A DNA stretch of 64,000 bases from Escherichia phage vB_EcoM_WL-3. Position numbers and translations under genes: made by a program. Within the stretch, counting starts at the first letter, position 1, and each line of letters opens with the position of its first letter. The notes below the pieces were generated by a model, which was not told the DNA's origin, did not search any database, and was given only the letters and a program-made list of their open reading frames with translations. The stretch lies in sequence record MT968995.1. The stretch is one strand, 5' to 3'. Positions 8,480 through 60,200 of the stretch are shown here, piece by piece.

Positions 8480-8758
8480 TCAAAATGTAATTTCTAACCA
8501 ATCACCATCACGCTGATCACTATTGACTTTAAAGCTAAATCCTTCTTTTCTCAGCCAATCACCAATTTCTTCAGTAATCAATTTATCGCGAGCAGTGCAA
8601 TAATAACTAAAATATGTTTTACCTTGTTCAGCTGCTTTATTAGCAAGTTCCGAAAAATCTTTAATAAAACACTCTAGTTTAAACTGTTTACTTTTAAGTG
8701 CTTTTTCACGTAATTGATTAGCAAAAGATTCATTTTCATAAAGATCATACTGTTCCAT
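8480..8758 (-). CDS. Hypothetical protein (T4 24.2-like position)
   Basis: 92-aa ORF in an operon-like array downstream of the 8745..8960 ORF. Confidence 0.6.
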   Translation of the reverse strand: MEQYDLYENESFANQLREKALKSKQFKLECFIKDFSELANKAAEQGKTYFSYYCTARDKLITEEIGDWLRKEGFSFKVNSDQRDGDWLEITF

Positions 8759-8960
8759 TTTTCACCTTTTTATTAATATGTCTTTTTCTATAGACAACTT
8801 TTTCTCGAGTCTCAAATTTATTTTTAGCAGTCATAGCTCGAGCCCATAATACAGCCACTTCTTTCGCCTGTAAGTTCAATTCACGAGCAATTTCAATGAA
8901 TGACTTTCCAGACTCATGGAGTGTAAACACCACAACCTCAGTTCTCATAATCAATCTCAT
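8745..8960 (-). CDS. Hypothetical small basic protein (T4 24.3-like position)
   Basis: 71-aa ORF, basic C-terminus. Confidence 0.55.
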   Translation of the reverse strand: MRLIMRTEVVVFTLHESGKSFIEIARELNLQAKEVAVLWARAMTAKNKFETREKVVYRKRHINKKVKNGTV

Positions 8961-25733: not shown

Positions 25734-27193
25734 AGACCAGTTACCTCATGAAAATCACCAAATACATCCTCGAATGTATTAGCTTTTGTTTTATCTTCAC
25801 GCAAACGAATCGCAATTGGAAGAAATAATTTAACGTAATCAGTGCGACCATCAGATTTTAACCAACCGTTGCATTCGCACTCTAGAATTTTTCCAATATA
25901 ATAATTTTGGTTTTCCATAATGCGAGTACGGTCAAGTTCATGTGATTTTACACCGGCTTTATCTTTTAAGCCTGAACCTGCATTTACTTTAATTTTTCCA
26001 CACTCTGATTCAAGAATAAATCCACCCGCTTTAGTAGGGTCTTTACGGTGAGGATAAATTCCTACAATTTTTAAATCAACATCAATTACTTCTTTAAATT
26101 TATAGAGATTTTTTGAACGAGCATTTTCCCACAATCCATCGGTATTTTTGAGAATAATACCTTCAAGACCCTGGTCAATATACTTTTTATAAATTACCTT
26201 AGCTTCATCTAGGTTATTTACTACCTGGTTTTCAATTAAAATTACTTTATCATATCCTGATGTCATTTGTTCTAGTTTAGAAAAACGTACATCATATTTT
26301 AAACGAAACGCCGGAAGACCGTATATTTCTACCAACGGGACATAATCCCAGACCTGAAACTTCATGCATTTGGCTTCTTTTTCGGAAATGGTTCCTTTTA
26401 AGGATTTATTGGCGATTCCATTAGAAGCAGTACGAGATTCCGCTACTTCGGCGAATTCTTTAGCTTTACTAATTTCAGGATAAGCATCAAAAAGAAAATC
26501 TAGGCCTTCTGGTTCCTTTTTAACTTGCTCATGGTATACCAATTCACCATCAATTAACACACCTTCTGGATGAATCTGGCGGGCTTCAGCAGTCATTTTG
26601 ATTAACTCTTCCTTAAGAAGATCTAATCCTAGATATTCATTACCAGCTCGTGATAAAAGACGAACATCATCTAATTCATCACCTCGGACTTCAGCAAAAC
26701 ACCGAGCTCCATCTGCTTTTAACTGCGCAAAAGCTGGAAACTTGATATTCTTACTAATGCCTTTTTCATCATAAGAACTTGCTAGCATTTGAGGTTGTTC
26801 AGGAATTAAACCTGGCCAAACTTTGTTTGCAATAGATACTGAAGCACCGCATTCAAGGTCTCGCATCATAACTCGACGCAAAACTTCAACATCATCCTTT
26901 TTACCATCAGTGATATATCCAGTTAATTCCTCAATTGCAGCATTTCCAGTCAATTTCCGAGTAGCTAACGTGAATTCAATGAAGTCAAGCATATCGGTAA
27001 TAGTCAGCATTCCAAAACTCTGGGTAGCAATACCAGGTTTAGGCCATTTCTTGATATAATACTGTAACCCACGAGAATAAGTCAGACGATATACTCGTTT
27101 AAGCAATTCATTATTTTTATTCTTTTCAAGAATTGCTTGCTTCTGTTTAGTTGATCCAATAGATGCTATTTCATTCAGAATTTTAAGAATCAT
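25730..27193 (-). CDS. 30: ATP-dependent DNA ligase gp30
   Basis: 487-aa ORF with adenylation motif KADGAR; matches T4 DNA ligase length. Confidence 0.95.
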   Translation of the reverse strand: MILKILNEIASIGSTKQKQAILEKNKNNELLKRVYRLTYSRGLQYYIKKWPKPGIATQSFGMLTITDMLDFIEFTLATRKLTGNAAIEELTGYITDGKKDDVEVLRRVMMRDLECGASVSIANKVWPGLIPEQPQMLASSYDEKGISKNIKFPAFAQLKADGARCFAEVRGDELDDVRLLSRAGNEYLGLDLLKEELIKMTAEARQIHPEGVLIDGELVYHEQVKKEPEGLDFLFDAYPEISKAKEFAEVAESRTASNGIANKSLKGTISEKEAKCMKFQVWDYVPLVEIYGLPAFRLKYDVRFSKLEQMTSGYDKVILIENQVVNNLDEAKVIYKKYIDQGLEGIILKNTDGLWENARSKNLYKFKEVIDVDLKIVGIYPHRKDPTKAGGFILESECGKIKVNAGSGLKDKAGVKSHELDRTRIMENQNYYIGKILECECNGWLKSDGRTDYVKLFLPIAIRLREDKTKANTFEDVFGDFHEVTGL

Positions 27194-50581: not shown

Positions 50582-50589
50582 TATAAATA
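50582..50589 (+). promoter_or_regulatory. Late promoter (TATAAATA) for gene 34
   Basis: Exact TATAAATA about 35 bp upstream of the gene 34 ATG. Confidence 0.6.
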
Positions 50590-50623: not shown

Positions 50624-53600
50624 ATGGCCGAGATTAAAAGAAAGTTCAGAGCAGAAGACGGTCTGGACGCAGGTGGCGATAAAATAATCAACGTAGCTTT
50701 AGCTGATCGTACCGTAGGAACTGACGGTGTTAACGTTGATTACTTAATTCAAGAAAACACAGTTCAACAATATGATCCAACTCGTGGATATTTAAAAGAT
50801 TTTGTAATCATTTATAATAATCGTTTTTGGGCAGCAACGGATAATATTCCAAAACCTGCTGGAAGTTTTAATAGAATTCGTTGGAAAGCATTACGTACTG
50901 ATGCCGTATATACAACCGTATCATCTGGACCATATCAATTAAAATCCGGAGAAGCAATTTCAGTAGATACATCAGTTGGTAATGACATTGAGTTTAATTT
51001 ACCACCTTCTCCGCTTGATGGAGAAACCGTAATAATTCAAGATATTGGTGGAAAACCTGGTATAAATCAGGTTAAAATAAATTCTTCAAATCAGAGTATT
51101 GTTAATTTTAGAGGTGAACAAGTACGTTCAGTTCTAATGACTCATCCAAAGTCACAGATGATATTCATTTTTAATAATCGTTTGTGGCAAATGTATGCTG
51201 CTGATTATAGCAGAGAAGCTGCGATTGTTACTCCATCAACTGCATATCAAGCACAATCTAATGATTTTATCGTGCGTAGATTTACTTCCGCTGCGCCGAT
51301 TAATATTAAACTTCCGAGATTTGCTAATCATGGCGATATTATTAATTCGTGCGTAGATTTACTTCCGCTGCGCCGATTAATATTAAACTTCCGAGATTTG
51401 CTAATCATGGCGATATTATTAATTTCGTTGATTTAGATAAATTAAATCCACTTTATCATACAATTGTCACAACATATGATGAAACAACTTCAGTACAAGA
51501 AGTTGGAACTCATTCTATTGAAGGCCGTACATCAATTGACGGTTTCTTGATGTTTGATGATAATGAAAAATTATGGAGACTGTTTGACGGGGATAGTAAA
51601 GCACGTTTACGCATTATAACAACTAATTCTAATATTCGTCCAAATGAAGAAGTTATGGTATTTGGCGCGAATAACGGAACAGCCCAAACAATTGAACTTC
51701 AACTTCCAACCGATATTTCCATTGGTGATACTGTTAAAATTTCCATGAATTACATGAGAAAAGGACAAACAGTTAAAATCAAAGCTGCCGGTGAAGATAA
51801 AATTGCTTCTTCAGTTCAATTGCTGCAATTCCCAAAACGCTCAGAATATCCACCACCTGAAGCTGAATGGGTGACTGTCCAAGAATTAGTTTTCAATGGT
51901 GAAACTAATTATGTTCCGGTTTTACAACTTGCTTATATAGAAGATTCTGACGGAAAATACTGGGTTGTACAACAAAACGTTCCAACGGTTGAAAGAGTCG
52001 ATTCTTTAAATAATTCTACTAGAGCAAGATTAGGCGTAATAGCTTTAGCTACACAAGCTCAAGCTAACGTCGATTTAGAAAATTCTCCGCAAAAAGAATT
52101 AGCAATTACACCAGAAACATTAGCTAACCGTACTGCTACAGAAACTCGTAGAGGTATCGCAAGAATAGCAACTACTGCTCAAGTGAATCAGAACACCACA
52201 TTCTCTTTTGCTGATGACCTTATCATCACTCCTAAAAAGCTGAATGAAAGAACTGCTACAGAAACTCGTAGAGGTGTAGCTGAAATTGCTACGCAGCAGG
52301 AAACTAATACAGGTACTGATGATACTACAATCATCACTCCTAAAAAGCTTCAAGCTCGACAAGGTTCTGAATCATTATCTGGTATTGTAACCTTTGTATC
52401 TACTGCGGGAGCTACTCCAGCTTCTAGTCGCGAATTAAATGGTACAAATGTTTATAATAAAAACACTAATAATTTAGTTGTTTCGCCTAAAGCTTTGGAT
52501 CAGTATAAAGCTACTCCAACACAACAAGGTGCAGTAATTTTAGCAGTTGAAAGTGAAGTAATTGCTGGACAAAGCCAAGAAGGATGGGCAAATGCGGTTG
52601 TAACGCCAGAAACGTTACATAAAAAGACATCAACTGATGGAAGAATTGGTTTAATTGAGATTGCTACGCAAAGTGAAGTTAATACAGGAACTGATTATAC
52701 TCGCGCAGTCACTCCTAAAACTTTAAATGACCGTAAAGCAACTGAAAGTTTAACTGGTATAGCTGAAATTGCTACGCAAGTTGAATTCGACGCAGGCGTC
52801 GACGATACTCGTATCTCTACACCATTAAAAATTAAAACCAGATTTAATAGTACTGATCGTACTTCTGTTGTTGCTCTGTCTGGATTAGTTGAATCAGGAA
52901 CTCTCTGGGACCATTATACCCTTAATATTCTTGAAGCAAATGAGACACAACGTGGTACACTTCGTGTAGCTACACAAGTTGAAGCTGCTGCAGGAACATT
53001 GGATAATGTTCTAATAACTCCTAAAAAGCTTTTAGGTACTAAATCTACTGAAGCGCAGGAAGGTGTTATTAAAGTTGCAACTCGGTCTGAAACTGTAGCT
53101 GGAACGTCAGCAAATACTGCTGTATCTCCAAAAAATTTAAAATGGATTGTGCAGAGTGAACCTACTTGGGCAGCTACTACTGCGATAAGAGGTTTTGTTA
53201 AAACCTCATCCGGTTCAATTACATTCGTTGGTAATGATACAGCTGGTTCTACGCAGGACTTAGAACTATATGAGAAAAATAACTATGCAGTATCACCATA
53301 TGAATTAAACCGCGTATTAGCAAATTATTTGCCGTTAAAAGCAAAAGCTGTAGATAGTAATTTATTAGATGGTTTAGATTCACTCCAGTTCATTCGTAGG
53401 GATATTGCGCAGACGGTTAATGGTTCACTAACCTTAACACAACAAACGAATCTGAGTGCCCCTCTTGTATCATCTAGTACTGCTACGTTTGGTGGATCAG
53501 TTTCGGCAAATAGTACATTAACTATTTCTAATACTGGAACGGCAACTCGTCTTATTTTTGAAAAAGGGCCTCAAACTGGGACGAACCCAGCTCAAACGAT

Positions 53601-54573
53601 GACAGTCAGAGTGTGGGGAAATCAATTCAGCAGTGAATCGGACACAACACGTTCTACTGTATTTGAAGTTAGTGATGAAACGTCTAGTCACTTTTATTCT
53701 CAGCGCAATAAAGCTGGTAATATAACATTTAATATCAATGGTACAGTAACACCGATAAATGTGAATGCTTCAGGAACATTGAATGCGAATGGCGTTGCAA
53801 CATTCGGTAGTTCAGTTACTGCTAATGGCGAATTTATCAGTAAATCGTCGAATGCTTTTAGAGCAATAAATGGTGATTATGGATTCTTTATTCGTAATGA
53901 TGGTGCTAACACCTATTTTATGCTTACTGCATCTGGTGATCAGACCGGTGGATTTAATGGATTACGTCCTTTATCTATTAATAATGCATCTGGTCAAGTA
54001 ACGATTGGTGAAAGCTTAATCATTGCCAAAGGTGCTACTATAAGTTCAGGTGGTTTAACTGTTAACTCGAGAATTCGTTCTCAGGGTACTAAAACCTCTG
54101 ATTTATATACCCGTGCGCCAACATCTGATACTGTAGGATTCTGGTCAATCGATATTAATGATTCAGCCACTTATAACCAGTTCCCGGGTTATTTTAAAAT
54201 GGTTGAAAAAACTAATGAAGTGACTGGACTTCCATACTTAGAACGTGGCGAAGAAGTTAAATCTCCCGGTACATTGACTCAGTTTGGTAACACACTTGAT
54301 TCGCTTTACCAAGATTGGATTACTTATCCAACTACCCCAGAAGCGCGCACCACTCGCTGGACACGCACATGGCAGAAAACCAAAAACTCTTGGTCAAGTT
54401 TTGTTCAGGTATTTGATGGGGGTAACCCTCCTCAACCTTCGGATATAGGAGCGATCCCATCTGATAACGGAATAATAGGTAATCTTACTATTCGTGATTT
54501 CTTGCGAATTGGTAATGTTCGCATTATTCCTGACCCAGTGAATAAAACTGTTAAATTTGAGTGGATTGAATAA
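50624..54573 (+). pseudogene. 34: Long tail fiber proximal subunit gene 34, frameshifted by a 77-bp tandem duplication
   Basis: Two overlapping ORFs (50624..51436, 270 aa; 51349..54573, 1074 aa) that together recapitulate the ~1289-aa gp34; the reading frame breaks exactly at a perfect 77-bp direct repeat. Confidence 0.85.
51270..51423 (+). repeat. Perfect 77-bp tandem duplication (2 copies) inside gene 34
   Basis: 51270-51346 and 51347-51423 are identical (tcgtgcgtagatttacttccgctgcgccgattaatattaaacttccgagatttgctaatcatggcgatattattaat); 77 is not a multiple of 3. Confidence 0.95.
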
Positions 54574-54581
54574 GAGGTATT

Positions 54582-55697
54582 ATGGAAAAATTTATGGCAG
54601 AGTTTGGACAAGGATACGTCCAAACGCCATTTTTATCGGAAAGTAATTCAGTAAGATATAAAATAAGTATAGCGGGTTCTTGCCCGCTTTCTACAGCAGG
54701 ACCGTATGTTAAATTTCAGGATAATCCTGTCGGAAATCAAACATTTAGCGCAGGTCTTCATTTAAGAGTTTTTGACCCTTCAACAGGAGCATTAGTTGAT
54801 AGTAAGTCATATGCTTTTTCTACTTCAAATAATACTACATCAGCTGCTTTTGTTAGTTTCATGAATTCTTTGTCAAACAATAGACTTGTTGCTATATTAA
54901 CTAGCGGAAAGGTTAATTTTCCTCCTGAAGTGGTATCTTGGTTAAGGGGAGCAGGAACTTCAGTTTTTCCATCAGATTCAGTATTGTCAAGATTTGACGT
55001 ATCATATGCTGCTTTTTATACTTCTTCTAAAAGAGCTATTGCATTAGAGCATGTTAAACTAAGTAATAGAAAAAGCACAGATGATTATCAAACTATTTTA
55101 GATGTTGTATTTGATAGTTTAGAAGACGTCGGAGCGACAGGATTTCCAAAAAGAACTTATGAAAGTGTCGAGCAATTCATGTCAGCAGTTGGTGGAACTA
55201 ATAACGAAATTGCGCGATTGCCAACTTCAGCTGCTATAAGTAAACTTTCTGACTATAATTTAATTCCTGGTGATGTTCTTTATCTTAAAGCACAGTTATA
55301 TGCTGATGCTGATTTACTTGATCTTGGAACTACAAACATATCCATTCGTTTTTATGATGCATCAAATGGATATATTTCCTCGACCCAAGCTGAGTTTACT
55401 GGGCAAGCTGGGTCTTGGGAATTAAAAGAAGACTATGTAGTTGTTCCAGAAAACGCCGTAGGATTTACGATATATGCACAAAGAACTGCTCAAGCAGGTC
55501 AAGGCGGCATGAGAAATTTAAGTTTTTCTGAAGTATCAAGAAATGGCGGCATTTCAAAACCTGCCGAATTTGGCGTCAACGGTATTCGCGTTAATTATGT
55601 CTGTGAATCGGCTTCACCTCCAGATATAATGGTACTTCCTACACAAGCCTCTTCTAAAACTGGCAAAGTGTTTGGACAGGAATTTAGAGAAGTTTAA
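54582..55697 (+). CDS. 35: Long tail fiber hinge connector gp35
   Basis: 371-aa ORF in the expected position. Confidence 0.88.
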   Translation: MEKFMAEFGQGYVQTPFLSESNSVRYKISIAGSCPLSTAGPYVKFQDNPVGNQTFSAGLHLRVFDPSTGALVDSKSYAFSTSNNTTSAAFVSFMNSLSNNRLVAILTSGKVNFPPEVVSWLRGAGTSVFPSDSVLSRFDVSYAAFYTSSKRAIALEHVKLSNRKSTDDYQTILDVVFDSLEDVGATGFPKRTYESVEQFMSAVGGTNNEIARLPTSAAISKLSDYNLIPGDVLYLKAQLYADADLLDLGTTNISIRFYDASNGYISSTQAEFTGQAGSWELKEDYVVVPENAVGFTIYAQRTAQAGQGGMRNLSFSEVSRNGGISKPAEFGVNGIRVNYVCESASPPDIMVLPTQASSKTGKVFGQEFREV

Positions 55698-55728: not shown

Positions 55729-55736
55729 TATAAATA
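55729..55736 (+). promoter_or_regulatory. Late promoter (TATAAATA) for gene 36
   Basis: Exact TATAAATA about 24 bp upstream of the gene 36 ATG. Confidence 0.6.
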
Positions 55737-55759: not shown

Positions 55760-56410
55760 ATGGCTGATTTAAAAGTAGGTTCAACTGTGGGTGGATCTGT
55801 CATTTGGCATCAAGGAAATTTTCCATTGAATTCAGCCGGTGACGATGTACTCTACAAATCATTTAAAATATATTCAGAATATAATAAACCGCAGGCAGCT
55901 GATAACGATTTCGTTTCTAAAGCTAATGGTGGTACTTACGCCGGTCCAATTACTATTAATTACGGGGTAAATAGTTATCTTCAATTAAGTAATAATGAAA
56001 CCCCTATCCGAATTCGTTCTGGTGGCGGCACTGGTAATACTCTTGTAGTTGGTGGCTCTTCTGGCGGTATTAGTTTTAGACCAGCAGGTAGTGAAATCAC
56101 TACTGGACAAATTACTATTACGCCAGAAGGTTTGACAACATTTACCAGGGCTGTAACGGCTCCATCTGTAACTGTTACATCTACTCCTTCCGCAGCATCT
56201 GATGTTACTCGTAAAGATTATGTTGATGGAGCAATAAATACTGTTACAACAAATGCAAACTCTAGGGTATTACGCTCTGGAGACACTATGACAGGAAATT
56301 TAACTGCGCCAAACCTTTTTTCACAGAATCCTGCATCTCAACCTTCACACGTTCCACGATTTGACCAAATCGTAATTAAGGATTCTGTTCAAGATTTCGG
56401 CTATTATTAA
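55760..56410 (+). CDS. 36: Long tail fiber distal connector gp36
   Basis: 216-aa ORF in the expected position. Confidence 0.88.
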
Positions 56411-56418
56411 GAGGACTT

Positions 56419-59367
56419 ATGGCTACTTTAAAACAAATACAATTTAAAAGAAGCAAAACTGCAGGTCAACGTCCTGCTGCTTCAGTATTAGCCGAAGGTG
56501 AATTGGCTATAAACTTAAAAGATAAAACAATTTTCACAAAAGATGACTCAGGTAGTGTTATAGAATTAGGTTTAAAATATGGAGGAACTATAAATGGGTC
56601 TTTAGAGGTTACAGAAAATATAACTGGAACTTTAATTGGAAATTCTAGCACAGCTACTAAATTGCAAACACCTAGGAAAATTAATGGTATATCTTTTGAT
56701 GGGTCAAAGGACATTACCTTAACTCCATCTGACATAAATGTCAATAGCACAACATTTATAAAAAATAATGGCGAATTACCTACTGATGCTAATTTAGATA
56801 CGTATGGGCCCATTGAAGAATATCTTGGTGTTTGGTCGAAATCTACTTCAACAAATGCGCAACCAGCAAATAAATTCCCAGAAGAAAATGCCGTAGGTGT
56901 ACTAGAAGTGTTTGTGGCCGGCCAATTTGCTGGCACTCAGCGTTATACTGTAAGATCTGGTAACGTCTATATTCGTTCCTTATCTGCTAAATGGAATGGC
57001 GTCGATGGTCCATGGGGTGTGTGGCGTAATGTTCAAGCGTCAACTCGTCCACTTTCACAAACGATTGACCTTGATAGCTTGGGAGAATTAGAACATTGTG
57101 GCTTATGGCGAAACAGTTCAAGCGCAATCGCATCATTTGATCGCCATTATCCAGAAGAAGGATCAGCCGCACAAGGATTTTTAGAAATATTTGAAGGTGG
57201 TTTATACACGAGAACTCAGCGTTATACTACCCGCATGGGTATGGTTTATACTCGTTGTCTCGCTGCTGCATGGGATGCTAGTGCACCTAAGTGGGAGGAA
57301 TGGAAGCAGGTTGGTCATGGCACACCAGCGACTTTCTATGATGGAGATCTGAATGATTTTAAAACTCCCGGGTTATATAATATTTTAGGCACTGATGCCG
57401 TTATTAACTGTCCTACAGGTGAAGGTTTGCCGACTGTTATTGTTGGTTTGCTGGAAGTTAAACAGCGTGCTTCTGGCGGTGCTATTTTCCAACGTTTCAC
57501 TACCGCAGGAACGGGTGCAACTACTCGCGATCGTATTTTTGAGCGTGCATATACTGGTGGTGCGTGGGGTGCATGGAACGAAGTATATACATCTTATTCT
57601 CTGCCAATTACTTTGGGTATGGGTGGTATTAAAGCTCAATTAGCGGAGTTAGATTGGCAAACCTTTGATTTTGTCCCTGGTAGTATGTTTAGTGTTCCTT
57701 TGAACAAAATAAAGAATATGCCAGCAAATATGGATTGGGGCACGATTGATGGAAACCTGGTTATGTTTTCTGTCGGTCCTAGCGAACATACCGGAACGGG
57801 TCGAACTGTTCAAGTGTGGCGCGGTACTGTATCTCAGGCGAACTATCGTTATTTCGTTGTTCGTATCGCTGGTAATCCAGGAAGTAGGACTAATACTTGT
57901 CGTCGTGTTGTTCTTGAAGACGGATCACATACTTGGACTGCTCAACAAAACTTTAGGGGATTGCTGAATATCACTGCTGCTGTTAATCTTGGTGCTAATC
58001 AGAAAATTTCACTTGCTCCAGGAGCATATATTCAAGCCCCTGCTAGCGGTTCTGGTTCTAATACTTACGCAAATCAGAATACTACCATTGCGCCATTATA
58101 TCAGGCTATTGACGATTCAAATAAAAACCAGTTTGCGCCAATTGTTAAACAGAAAAACACTGTAACAAATATTACTATGGCTTCTGGTATGGATATTGCT
58201 AGTTCAGAATATCGTATCGTTGCTCAGGGTGATTTATCCGCTACTGGAACTACAGCCACTGAATTAGCTACATGGCGTTTCTTGCCGTCTGGCCGATTCA
58301 TGTCACAAAGCCGAGTTTATGCTGGCGCAGCATTCTTGAACACTGATGGTAACATTGCTGGTTCAATCTGGAAGAAATACAACGATGCAACCAATTTAGA
58401 TGCTGCCTTGAATACTCGCCTAGGTAAAGGCGGTGATACGATGACAGGTCGGTTAACAATCAATGCACCTAATGATTCTATTGTATTATCAACGACTGCT
58501 AGTAATTCTTTGCATATTCGTGGTGACATAGACGGGACTGGTAACTGGTATATTGGTAAGGGTGGTGCTGATAATTCGCTAGCATTTTATAGCTATGCTT
58601 CTCAGGCGGCAGTACATATCACAAACAGTGGTGAGATTGCGTTAAAACCGCAAAATACCGTAATGGTTAACGTTAACCGTGACCGTGTACACATTAACGG
58701 TTCTGGATGGATTGCTAGACAACCGGGTGATTGGGGCAACCAATGGCGAGTAGAAGCTCCATTATTCGTTGATCATGGTTATGTTTCACAGGATTGTTAT
58801 TATCCTATTCTTAAAGCAAGAAGCGTTATAACCAATCAAGGATATAGCACCGCTGTTGACTTTGGTATGCGTCGTATTCCATCACAGTGGGGGCAAGCAA
58901 TCATTCGTGTCGGATCCACGGAGGCTTCTCCTGATGCTGGACACCCACAAGCTGTGTTTGAATTCCATCATGATGGATTCTTTTATACACCAGGAAATGG
59001 TAGCTTTAGCGATGTGTATATTCGTTCTGACTCCCGTCTCAAGATTAATAAAGAAGAATTAGAATATGGAGCGGTCGAAAAAGTTTGCCGACTGAAAGTT
59101 TATATTTACGATAAAGTTAAGTCTATTAAAGACCGTAGTGTTATTAAACGTGAAGTTGGTATTATTGCTCAGGACCTTGAAAAGGAATTACCGGAAGCTG
59201 TATCTAAAGTTGAAGTTGATGGATCTGATGTTCTGACAATTTCTAACTCTGCTGTGAATGCTCTTTTAATTAAGGCTATTCAGGAAATGAGTGAAGAAAT
59301 TAAAGAATTGAAAACGCCTTTCTTCACTAAAATTGCTCGCAAAATTAGTAATTATTTTAAATTCTAA
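56419..59367 (+). CDS. 37: Long tail fiber distal subunit gp37 (T2-type, with C-terminal chaperone-like domain)
   Basis: 982-aa ORF; the C-terminal ~120 aa ([20 protein letters not shown]...) resemble an intramolecular-chaperone/autocleavage domain. Confidence 0.9.
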
Positions 59368-59372
59368 CAACA

Positions 59373-59387
59373 AGGGGCTTTGCCCCT
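59373..59387 (+). other. GC hairpin (AGGGGC-TTT-GCCCCT) immediately upstream of the gene 38 SD
   Basis: Seen directly; followed by ttGGAGaaaatt ATG. Confidence 0.55.
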
Positions 59388-59399
59388 TTGGAGAAAATT

Positions 59400-60200
59400 A
59401 TGGCAGTAGTTGGTGTTCCCGGTTGGATTGGAAGTTCATCTGTAAATGAAACAGGACAACGATGGATGAGTCAAGCGGCTGGTCAATTAAGATTGGGTGT
59501 TCCTTGCTGGATGAGCCAATTCGCCGGACGCTCAAGAGAGATTATTCATACCGTAACAGCAAACCATAACTTTAATGGTCAATGGTTCCGCGACCGTTGC
59601 TTTGAAGCTGGCGGTGCACCCATTGTATTCAATATTGTTGGTGATATCGTTTCTTATTCTAAAGATGTGCCACTTTTCTTTATGTATGGGGATACGCCTA
59701 ATGAATATGTTGTTCTTAATATTCATGGCGGTGTTCATATGTGGGGTCGTGGTGGTAATGGTGGATACACTCACTCAGGAGGCGACGGTAACGGTACACA
59801 AGGCGGTCATGTTATTCAAAATGATATCGGTGGACGGCTTCGTATTTGGAACTACGGTGTTATAGCTGCTGGTGGTGGTGGTGGTGGCGGTATTGCATAT
59901 CGTCCACACTCAGGGGCAAACTGGCAAGATATCGGTGGCGGCGGCGGTCGACCTTTCGGTGGGGCTGGCGGTGGCGGTTATTCCGGTGGTGCTGCTTCGT
60001 ATGAAGGTCCGGGTGGTGGTTATGACTATGGTAACGCACACTCCGGCGCTGGTGGTAATGCTGGTGCTGCTGGTCAGAATGCATGGTCTGACGGCGGTAA
60101 AGTTCTTAAAGTTGGTGTTGGTGGTGCGTCTGGTCATGCAGTGTTTGGGTCTTCTCCAACTTGGGGTGTTGTTGGAACAATTTACGGACCAAGAGTATAA
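59400..60200 (+). CDS. 38: Receptor-recognising adhesin gp38 (T2-type, glycine-island containing)
   Basis: ORF 59388..60200 begins at TTG; the ATG at 59400 gives 266 aa; conserved N-terminus plus several poly-Gly islands. Confidence 0.85.

Follow-up and report, generated by a model that had tools for sequence, protein, structure and literature searches.

The segment at positions 56419–60200 of the window (the entire 64,000-nucleotide stretch of Escherichia phage vB_EcoM_WL-3 DNA analysed here) in all likelihood encodes the host-range module at the distal end of the long tail fibre of a T-even phage (Tequatrovirus), arranged as in T2, T6 and Ox2, with OmpA the most likely primary receptor. A sequence-only reading had earlier drawn attention to genes 37 and 38 at this locus; its observation is real and is confirmed by the present analysis, and there is nothing new in it.

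The ORF map places the module within the gene order 34-35-36-37-38-t, and an exact-match scan located late promoter cores ahead of genes 34 and 36. The latter, a T4-type core (TATAAATA, positions 55729–55736, + strand, as are all features given below), lies 24 nt 5' of gene 36, and the only other nearby match on this strand, at 50582, is the one upstream of gene 34. Late-promoter function is assigned from established knowledge of T4 late promoters, and the core at 55729–55736 is likely to be the start of a 36-37-38 late transcript. Gene 36 (55760–56410) encodes the 216-aa distal hinge connector, as indicated by a match of the ORF to Pfam Phage_T4_gp36 (E 5.6e-6) and by the annotation of gp36 in the syntenic loci of WilhelmHis, T2, T6 and T4; on this assignment gp36 joins gp37 to the proximal half-fibre. 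Gene 38 sits directly 3' of gene 37 and 5' of the holin gene t, whose product matches Pfam Phage_holin_T with E 8.4e-118, an order found also in Ox2, T2, T6 and WilhelmHis. The 37/38 intergenic stretch (59374–59393) reads as a GGGGC-TTT-GCCCC hairpin (59374–59386) followed by the gene 38 ribosome-binding site GGAG (59390–59393). This hairpin is merely noted here, since its fold (-13 kcal/mol) is not distinguishable from that of shuffled sequence (z -0.98); it was not listed by the terminator scan, and Rfam models, run over the full window at their gathering thresholds, gave no match.

Gene 37 (56419–59367) encodes a protein of 982 aa matching PHROG 1699 ('long tail fiber protein distal subunit') with E 5.6e-203; this ORF and that of the 266-aa gp38 are both present, with the protein sequences quoted, where the sequence-only reading had placed them. 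The first part of gp37 (residues 1–869, 56419–59025) is the predicted mature distal fibre subunit, in which a conserved N-terminus is followed by knob-like repeats, a variable middle (residues 525–676), and a T6-like tip whose last residues are DVYIR869, with a Pfam gp37_trimer match at residues 693–738. The three knob-like repeats of ~95 aa (residues ~111–392) are visible by eye only, a self-BLAST of gp37 for internal repeats having given no significant match, and residues 112–326 match PHROG 4618. Identity to T6 gp37 amounts to 93% over residues 1–524 and 89% over residues 677–982, with no match in between.

The second part of gp37 (residues 870–982 and the stop codon, 59026–59367) is a predicted intramolecular chaperone of 113 aa, identified by its Pfam match and by alignment with Salmonella phage S16. 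A Peptidase_S74 domain ("chaperone of endosialidase", PF13884) covers residues 870–928 with E 6.2e-10 and 39.7 bits, above the curated cut-off of 22 bits, and spans profile positions 1–57 of 58. The catalytic dyad of S74 domains, reportedly described by Schulz and colleagues in 2010, is said to comprise a Ser at the cleavage site and a Lys five residues downstream. In gp37, S870 and K875 occur at the expected spacing and form the putative dyad for a self-cleavage predicted between R869 and S870 (DVYIR869|S870DSRLK875). Alignment to the S16 gp37 chain 6f45_A sets SDSRLK in register with SDRRIK of S16, whose gp37 is cut at DLNVS^SDRRIKK and sheds its final 113 residues, and a homologous DVYIR^SDGRLKI motif has been reported in T6-like phages (PMC7917993). 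The chaperone-like or autocleavage segment suggested earlier is borne out by the S74 domain and by the Ser/Lys motif in S16 register, its length being 113 aa rather than about 120.

For gene 38, the program-generated ORF begins at TTG 59388 (270 aa); the true start is the ATG at 59400, preceded by the GGAG mentioned above, which yields a 266-aa protein (59400–60200) that agrees in start and length with the gp38 annotated for Ox2. Its assignment as a fibre-tip adhesin of the Ox2 type draws on Pfam and PDB matches and on identity to Ox2. Pfam GP38 (PF05268) covers residues 47–266 (222.3 bits, E 8.7e-66) and Gp38_N (PF21721) residues 1–42 (69.1 bits, E 3.2e-19), both exceeding their curated cut-off of 25 bits, and the protein also matches PHROG 2056 ('tail fiber protein; host specificity', E 1.7e-107), the solved S16 adhesin chain 6f45_D (E 2.3e-43, residues 5–263), and 9v85_A (E 2.6e-61), which belongs to a structure of a GFP-gp38 fusion; a literature search for the publication behind PDB 9v85 found none. 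At the level of sequence, these full-length matches to curated families and solved structures, together with 37 phage records at least 95% identical overall, settle membership in the adhesin family, as had been proposed, and full-length homology to 6f45_D and 9v85_A predicts a polyglycine sandwich fold.

The conserved N-terminus followed by poly-Gly islands that had been noticed in gp38 is readily recognised. The N-terminal attachment domain (residues 1–42, 59400–59525), delimited by Gp38_N, contains W9, W22, and W37, which align with the three Trp residues of S16 gp38 in 6f45_D. Given the role described for the N-terminal Trp residues in S16 gp38 (PMC7917993), these are predicted to be the prongs by which gp38 docks onto the cleaved tip of gp37. 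Residues 118–242 hold 14 runs of at least two Gly, including G158–164, G179–183, and G190–193, and Gly accounts for 54 of the last 150 residues. An alignment of adhesins shows conserved blocks, among them GRGGNG, G7-8 and GGAxGxAV, separating variable ones, and the C-terminal domain displays the alternation of glycine-rich motifs with four hypervariable segments (HVS) laid out previously (PMC3157838, Trojet 2011; PMC12032242, Lutz 2025).

The ORFs, domains, motifs, near-identity to Ox2 and mosaic breakpoints are direct observations, onto which cleavage, docking, and OmpA binding are projected from homologues. In the proposed mechanism gp37 would trimerise with the aid of its own C-terminal chaperone, which, judging from homologues, would next cut itself off between R869 and S870, exposing a flat trimeric tip with DVYIR at its end. 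One copy of gp38 would then dock on this tip, again by analogy with homologues, through W9, W22, and W37 of its N-terminal domain, and would show to the cell surface its four hypervariable segments, held between the glycine-rich motifs.

It is these segments that point to the receptor. Their boundaries were taken from Lutz 2025 (PMC12032242), where residues are numbered after the 266-aa gp38 of fFiEco06, equal in length to the gp38 studied here; HVS4, printed there as '133-150', was taken as 233–250 from the segment order. HVS1 (residues 122–158, 59763–59873), the first hypervariable receptor-contact segment, and HVS4 (residues 233–250, 60096–60149) are identical to those of Ox2, whereas HVS2 (residues 166–179, 59895–59936) has N174 in place of Lys and HVS3 (residues 187–222, 59958–60065) has G193 in place of Arg. 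K174N and R193G are the only differences from the OmpA-recognising Ox2 gp38 (X05675, 266 aa) in the receptor-binding half (residues 122–266, 98.6% identical); six further substitutions fall at residues 52–83 of the N-terminal half, so that 8 of 266 residues differ overall (97.0% identity). Over residues 122–266, identity to other adhesins is 83.4% for RB32 (an OmpA/LPS user), 49% for M1, 47% for WilhelmHis and T6 (both Tsx), and 42% for T2 (FadL). AV119 gp38 is 82.7% identical over residues 117–266, shares the HVS2 motif AYR(P/V) onward, and has both N174 and G193; G193 is also found in RB32, EcNP1, and EC.W14-2, and the N174/G193 combination is the common natural form (EcNP1, EC.W14-2). The protein thus falls in the Ox2/RB32/AV119 ('type 1' OmpA) class of hypervariable segments, all other receptor classes lying below 50%.

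Aligning the variable segments against adhesins whose receptor is known, as advised by the sequence-only reading, therefore identifies these segments as those of Ox2, which makes OmpA the most likely primary receptor. Ox2 binds OmpA loops, closely related gp38 adhesins share their receptor (PMC12032242; bioRxiv 10.64898/2026.04.02.716166), and AV119, classified as a type-1 OmpA adhesin, loses infectivity upon ompA deletion, its main predicted OmpA contacts being R165 and neighbouring V166–A170 in AV119 numbering (PMC12032242). OmpA alone may be too simple an answer, since Ox2 is listed among the phages whose full infectivity requires more than one receptor (PMC3157838, Trojet 2011), and there is possibly some dependence on the LPS core as well.

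The adhesin is mounted differently from that of Ox2. The adjoining gp37 C-terminus is only ~81% identical to its Ox2 counterpart (47 differences in 251 aa), so that in this phage the Ox2 cassette is borne by another fibre, and the gene 37-38 module as a whole is a recombinational mosaic, in which a shaft common to Tsx-binding phages is followed by a T6-like 5' part of gene 38 and an Ox2-like receptor cassette. Sliding identity and mismatch maps show T6-like sequence stopping at ~59720 and Ox2-like sequence beginning at ~59690, which puts the breakpoint at gp38 codons ~100–110, just 5' of the first glycine-rich motif. Close relatives show the pieces in other combinations. WilhelmHis (Bas35), which targets Tsx (PMC8594841), and AV121 have a gp37 of 982 aa with DNA about 97–100% identical along the whole gene, but identity drops at the 37/38 junction, the receptor-binding half of their gp38 being T6-like and 47% identical. 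Conversely, the gp38 of Nami, ESh29, and EcNP1 is 99.6% identical, whereas EcNP1 has a different gp37, of 994 aa, whose gene is for much of its length 70–90% identical in DNA or unmatched. The whole module (100% of its length) occurs in EC.W14-2 (PQ860993) and EC.W13-3 (PP496997), with a DNA identity of 98.3%.

Salmonella phage S16, which binds Salmonella OmpC, has the same arrangement. Its gp37 (PDB 6F45) carries a 113-residue C-terminal chaperone with S-D-x-R-x-K at the cleavage site, and its gp38 shares the three aligned N-terminal Trp residues and a polyglycine domain, yet gp38 is only 249 aa long with different loops, and gp37 is distant, matching in the chaperone region alone (E 0.009). 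T2, run as a positive control, returned the same Pfam set (S74 for gp37, GP38 and Gp38_N for gp38), and its gp37 sequence NVYIRSDIRLK contains the same VYIR-SD.RLK motif; however, T2 gp37 has 1341 aa and matches at its two ends only, and identity to T2 gp38 is 49.6% over the N-terminal half and 42.0% over the C-terminal one. The description of the module as 'T2-type' accordingly holds for architecture and domain content and fails for descent: a T2 lineage was rejected on sequence distance, the module being of T6/Ox2 lineage.

T4 shares with this phage the locus and gene order and a related gp37 N-terminus and shaft, and since its gene 38, also located between 37 and t, encodes a chaperone, it could be argued that gp38 here likewise only assists assembly and is absent from virions, leaving the gp37 tip to bind the receptor. 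Beyond this shared position the two systems diverge. T4 gp38 is an unrelated protein (BLASTP E 3.6); the match between the two gp37 proteins is weak and internal (E 3e-4); and none of the S74, GP38, and Gp38_N domains was found in T4 gp37 and gp38 in the Pfam control. Instead T4 gp37 ends in Collar (PF07484) and Phage_fiber domains, a Collar/needle receptor-binding tip without S74, while the gp37 studied here has S74 and no Collar. With the very strong evidence for adhesin-family membership of gp38 added, a T4-type arrangement is extremely improbable, and it was rejected. Gene 34 raises a separate matter, for a perfect 2.0-copy tandem repeat of 77 bp (51270–51424), the only strong one in the 64 kb, shifts its reading frame and splits it into two ORFs, one of 270 aa and one of 1074 aa. 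Were this duplication real, gp37 and gp38 would lack a proximal half-fibre to carry them; the module would be intact but useless, not mountable on the baseplate, and the sequence would be that of a minority or defective variant. None of the records in the phage collection searched spans the duplication junction, and the AV121 alignment shows an overlap at precisely this point, observations that together with the split gene and the singular repeat were entered in favour of this reading. It is nevertheless quite improbable: all relatives examined carry an intact gene 34 of 3870 nt, and T4 genetics has established that a T-even gene 34 null cannot adsorb normally and would not be propagated. Moreover, 77 is among the standard k-mer lengths of assemblers, and k-base overlaps left untrimmed in circular contigs are a known artefact after genome rotation. 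The duplication is probably an assembly artefact.

A more specific doubt accepts the distal host-range architecture in full and questions the receptor, which by virtue of K174N and R193G might not be OmpA, or not OmpA only, but OmpC, LPS, or another porin. Precedents exist, as a single substitution in a hypervariable segment, Q206L, switched RB51/RB68 from OmpF to OmpW (bioRxiv 10.64898/2026.04.02.716166), PST gains OmpA use while only a few HVS2/HVS3 residues away from T6, and RB32, like Ox2, is reported to need more than one receptor (PMC3157838). Yet AV119, which is not infective once ompA is deleted, has both N174 and G193, and the OmpA/LPS user RB32 has G193; the N174/G193 form is moreover widespread, with the 37 records mentioned above at 95% identity or more overall, and the receptor-binding half is at most 50% identical to that of any other receptor class. 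A primary receptor other than OmpA is thus unlikely, and OmpA is retained as the preferred assignment. Similarly doubtful is the related idea that an N174/G193 adhesin of the Ox2 type on a Tsx-type gp37 shaft has a receptor range unlike that of classical Ox2, for instance with additional use of OmpC/LPS or of other OmpA loop alleles; if it were true, residues 174 and 193 would be natural host-range switches. A literature search for the positions of the Ox2 host-range mutations (Ox2h5, h10, h12, h20) relative to residues 174 and 193 found none.

The architecture of this module is textbook knowledge (Trojet 2011, PMC3157838; Lutz 2025, PMC12032242); earlier publications likewise cover the self-cleavage of the chaperone, the function of the hypervariable segments and the link between Ox2 and OmpA, and near-identical modules are present in GenBank. 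The module therefore opens no new question. The OmpA prediction, which the sequence permits with confidence, helps in choosing phages with non-overlapping receptors for cocktails, a practical value that is small, and the locus adds one more clean case of cassette exchange at the boundary between the gene 38 N-terminal domain and its glycine-rich motifs.

The region from gene 34 to gene t is a canonical T-even long-tail-fibre locus, with genes 34, 35, 36, 37, 38 and t in that order followed by asiA, arn and motA on the opposite strand, and with the T4-type late promoter core TATAAATA on the plus strand directly upstream of gene 34 (50582) and of gene 36 (55729). Gene 37, encoding the distal long-tail-fibre subunit, is an open reading frame at 56419–59367 (+), and gene 38, encoding the predicted fibre-tip adhesin, extends from an ATG at 59400 to 60200 (+), with GGAG at 59390–59393 before the start. 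A mechanical listing begins the gene 38 frame upstream, at TTG 59388; the ATG start gives gp38 the same start and length as annotated Ox2 gp38. Genes 37 and 38 are 32 nt apart, and this gap contains a GGGGC-TTT-GCCCC hairpin (59374–59386) immediately 5' of the ribosome-binding site of gene 38; the folding energy of the hairpin does not stand out from that of shuffled sequence (z −0.98), and an Rfam search of the window returned no match. The proximal hinge connector gp35 (54582–55697) matches Pfam ILEI (PF15711, E 5.4e-8, residues 58–112), or 'interleukin-like EMT inducer', a domain whose name one would not expect to meet in the hinge of a phage fibre.

Gene 34, encoding the proximal half-fibre subunit, is split into frames of 270 residues (50624–51436) and 1074 residues (51349–54573). 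The split is caused by a perfect 77-bp tandem duplication at 51270–51424 (2.0 copies, 100% match); no other strong tandem repeat occurs in the window. Its length is not divisible by three, so the gene as written is frameshifted. AV121 and EC.W14-2 lack it, the gene 34 of relatives is intact at 3870 nt, and none of the phage records matching across the junction carries the duplication. If real, it would leave the phage without long tail fibres. Assemblers routinely use k-mers of 77, and a phage lacking gene 34 function would fail to propagate; the duplication is therefore most likely an untrimmed circular-contig overlap, an assembly artefact.

The sequence-only reading described a T2-type host-range module, consisting of a 982-residue gp37 with a chaperone-like C-terminus and a 266-residue gp38 with poly-glycine islands. 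Both lengths and the quoted gp37 C-terminal sequence are borne out by the reading frames, and gp37 resembles the PHROGs 'long tail fiber protein distal subunit' (E 5.6e-203), with Pfam matches to gp37_trimer (residues 693–738) and Peptidase_S74, the 'chaperone of endosialidase' (residues 870–928, E 6.2e-10). In 1986, Drexler, Riede and Henning reportedly demonstrated that T2 gp37, which carries the motif NVYIRSDIRLK, is processed at its C-terminus; the Ser/Lys dyad is said to have been established by Schulz et al. in 2010. Aligned to S16 gp37 (6f45_A), S870-D-S-R-L-K875 is in register with S-D-R-R-I-K. S16 gp37 undergoes autocleavage at DLNVS^SDRRIKK, releasing its last 113 residues as an intramolecular chaperone, and T6-like phages have DVYIR^SDGRLKI at the equivalent position, the DVYIR strands forming the gp38 docking surface (PMC7917993). 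The sequence here, DVYIR869|S870DSRLKI, likewise predicts a chaperone of 113 residues, upholding the proposed C-terminal segment. Further upstream, gp37 residues ~111–392 (56749–57594) form three tandem knob-like repeats of ~95 residues sharing the pattern G.LE(V/I)...QR(Y/F)T...W..W..V; the repeats are visible by eye, have no Pfam match and are not significant in a gp37 self-BLAST, and residues 112–326 are covered by a match to PHROG 4618 ('tail collar fiber protein').

Three lines identify gp38 as an adhesin: it belongs to the Pfam families GP38, at E 8.7e-66, and Gp38_N, at E 3.2e-19; it matches the PHROGs family 'tail fiber protein; host specificity' (E 1.7e-107); and it aligns from end to end with 6f45_D, the adhesin of S16 whose structure has been solved (E 2.3e-43). 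Fourteen runs of at least two glycines fall within residues 118–242, and glycine makes up 54 of the last 150 residues. W9, W22 and W37 align with S16 gp38 tryptophans that insert into the gp37 tip (PMC7917993). The closest solved structure is a recent GFP-gp38 fusion, PDB 9v85_A (E 2.6e-61, gp38 residues 38–266), with loops unlike those seen here; a literature search found no paper behind it.

The T2-type designation holds for architecture, the Pfam domain set of the T2 gp37/gp38 pair being exactly that of this pair. A T4-type arrangement was rejected, since T4 gp37 carries Collar and Phage_fiber domains instead, and T4 gp38, which has no Pfam match, shows no similarity to this gp38 (E 3.6). 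The T2-type designation does not hold for descent: T2 gp38 is 42–50% identical and T2 gp37 matches at its two ends only, and the module's lineage is T6/Ox2-like rather than T2-like. Gene 37 DNA is about 97–100% identical along the gene to that of two phages whose adhesins are T6-like (Tsx-type), WilhelmHis and AV121, with far lower mid-gene similarity to EcNP1, RB32 and T6; the protein is 93% identical to T6 over residues 1–524 and 89% over 677–982, around an unrelated middle. Gene 38 is near-identical to T6 up to ~59720 and thereafter fully divergent except for the last codons, and is divergent from Ox2 to ~59680 and near-identical thereafter, so that the crossover lies at about codons 100–110, just 5' of the first glycine-rich motif. 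This position fits published cassette exchange at conserved flanks (PMC3157838; bioRxiv 10.64898/2026.04.02.716166). Both docking partners, the gp37 tip and the gp38 N-domain, are T6-like. EC.W14-2 and EC.W13-3 carry the same composite module (98.3% identity over 100% of the region), and gp38 of Nami, ESh29 and EcNP1 is 99.6% identical. Elsewhere, the window lacks ~1.1 kb near ~39230 that in AV121 (locus L009, 231–1323) contains a homing endonuclease gene inside nrdB, as well as AV121 segments of ~270 bp (8640–8910) and ~325 bp (25930–26254), indels that are ordinary T-even variation.

Alignment of the gp38 variable segments with adhesins of known receptor, as the sequence-only reading proposed, points to OmpA. 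Over the receptor-binding half (residues 122–266), identity is 98.6% to Ox2 (reported receptor OmpA), 83.4% to RB32 (OmpA/LPS), 49.0% to M1, which we take to be an OmpA binder, 47.3% to WilhelmHis (Tsx), 46.6% to T6 (Tsx) and 42.0% to T2 (FadL). Tsx and FadL are the respective targets of WilhelmHis and T2 (PMC8594841), and Ox2 is described as binding the loops of OmpA (PMC12032242). Whole gp38 is 97.0% identical to that of Ox2 (X05675, tblastn), six of the eight differences lying in the N-terminal half (residues 52, 53, 55, 72, 80, 83); the other two, K174N and R193G from Ox2 to this protein, fall within hypervariable segments HVS2 (166–179) and HVS3 (187–222), as numbered by Lutz 2025 from a 266-residue reference of equal length. 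AV119 gp38, 82.7% identical over residues 117–266 and also compared across the 14-residue HVS2 motif, has both N174 and G193. AV119, which loses infectivity upon ompA deletion, founds the broad-range 'type 1' OmpA adhesins, with R165 and neighbouring V166–A170 (AV119 numbering) as the main predicted OmpA contacts (Lutz 2025, PMC12032242). Since close relatives among gp38 adhesins recognise a common receptor according to three independent studies (including PMC12032242, PMC3157838 and bioRxiv 10.64898/2026.04.02.716166), this Ox2/AV119-like half makes OmpA the predicted receptor, with the caveats that single HVS substitutions can switch receptor (bioRxiv 10.64898/2026.04.02.716166) and that Ox2 is among phages needing more than one (Trojet 2011, PMC3157838). 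A literature search found no published Ox2 host-range mutant positions.

Judged by its sequence, the module belongs to a family that has been characterised in depth, and it displays every defining feature that sequence can reveal; its anatomy nowhere departs from the published picture, and it is therefore already known.
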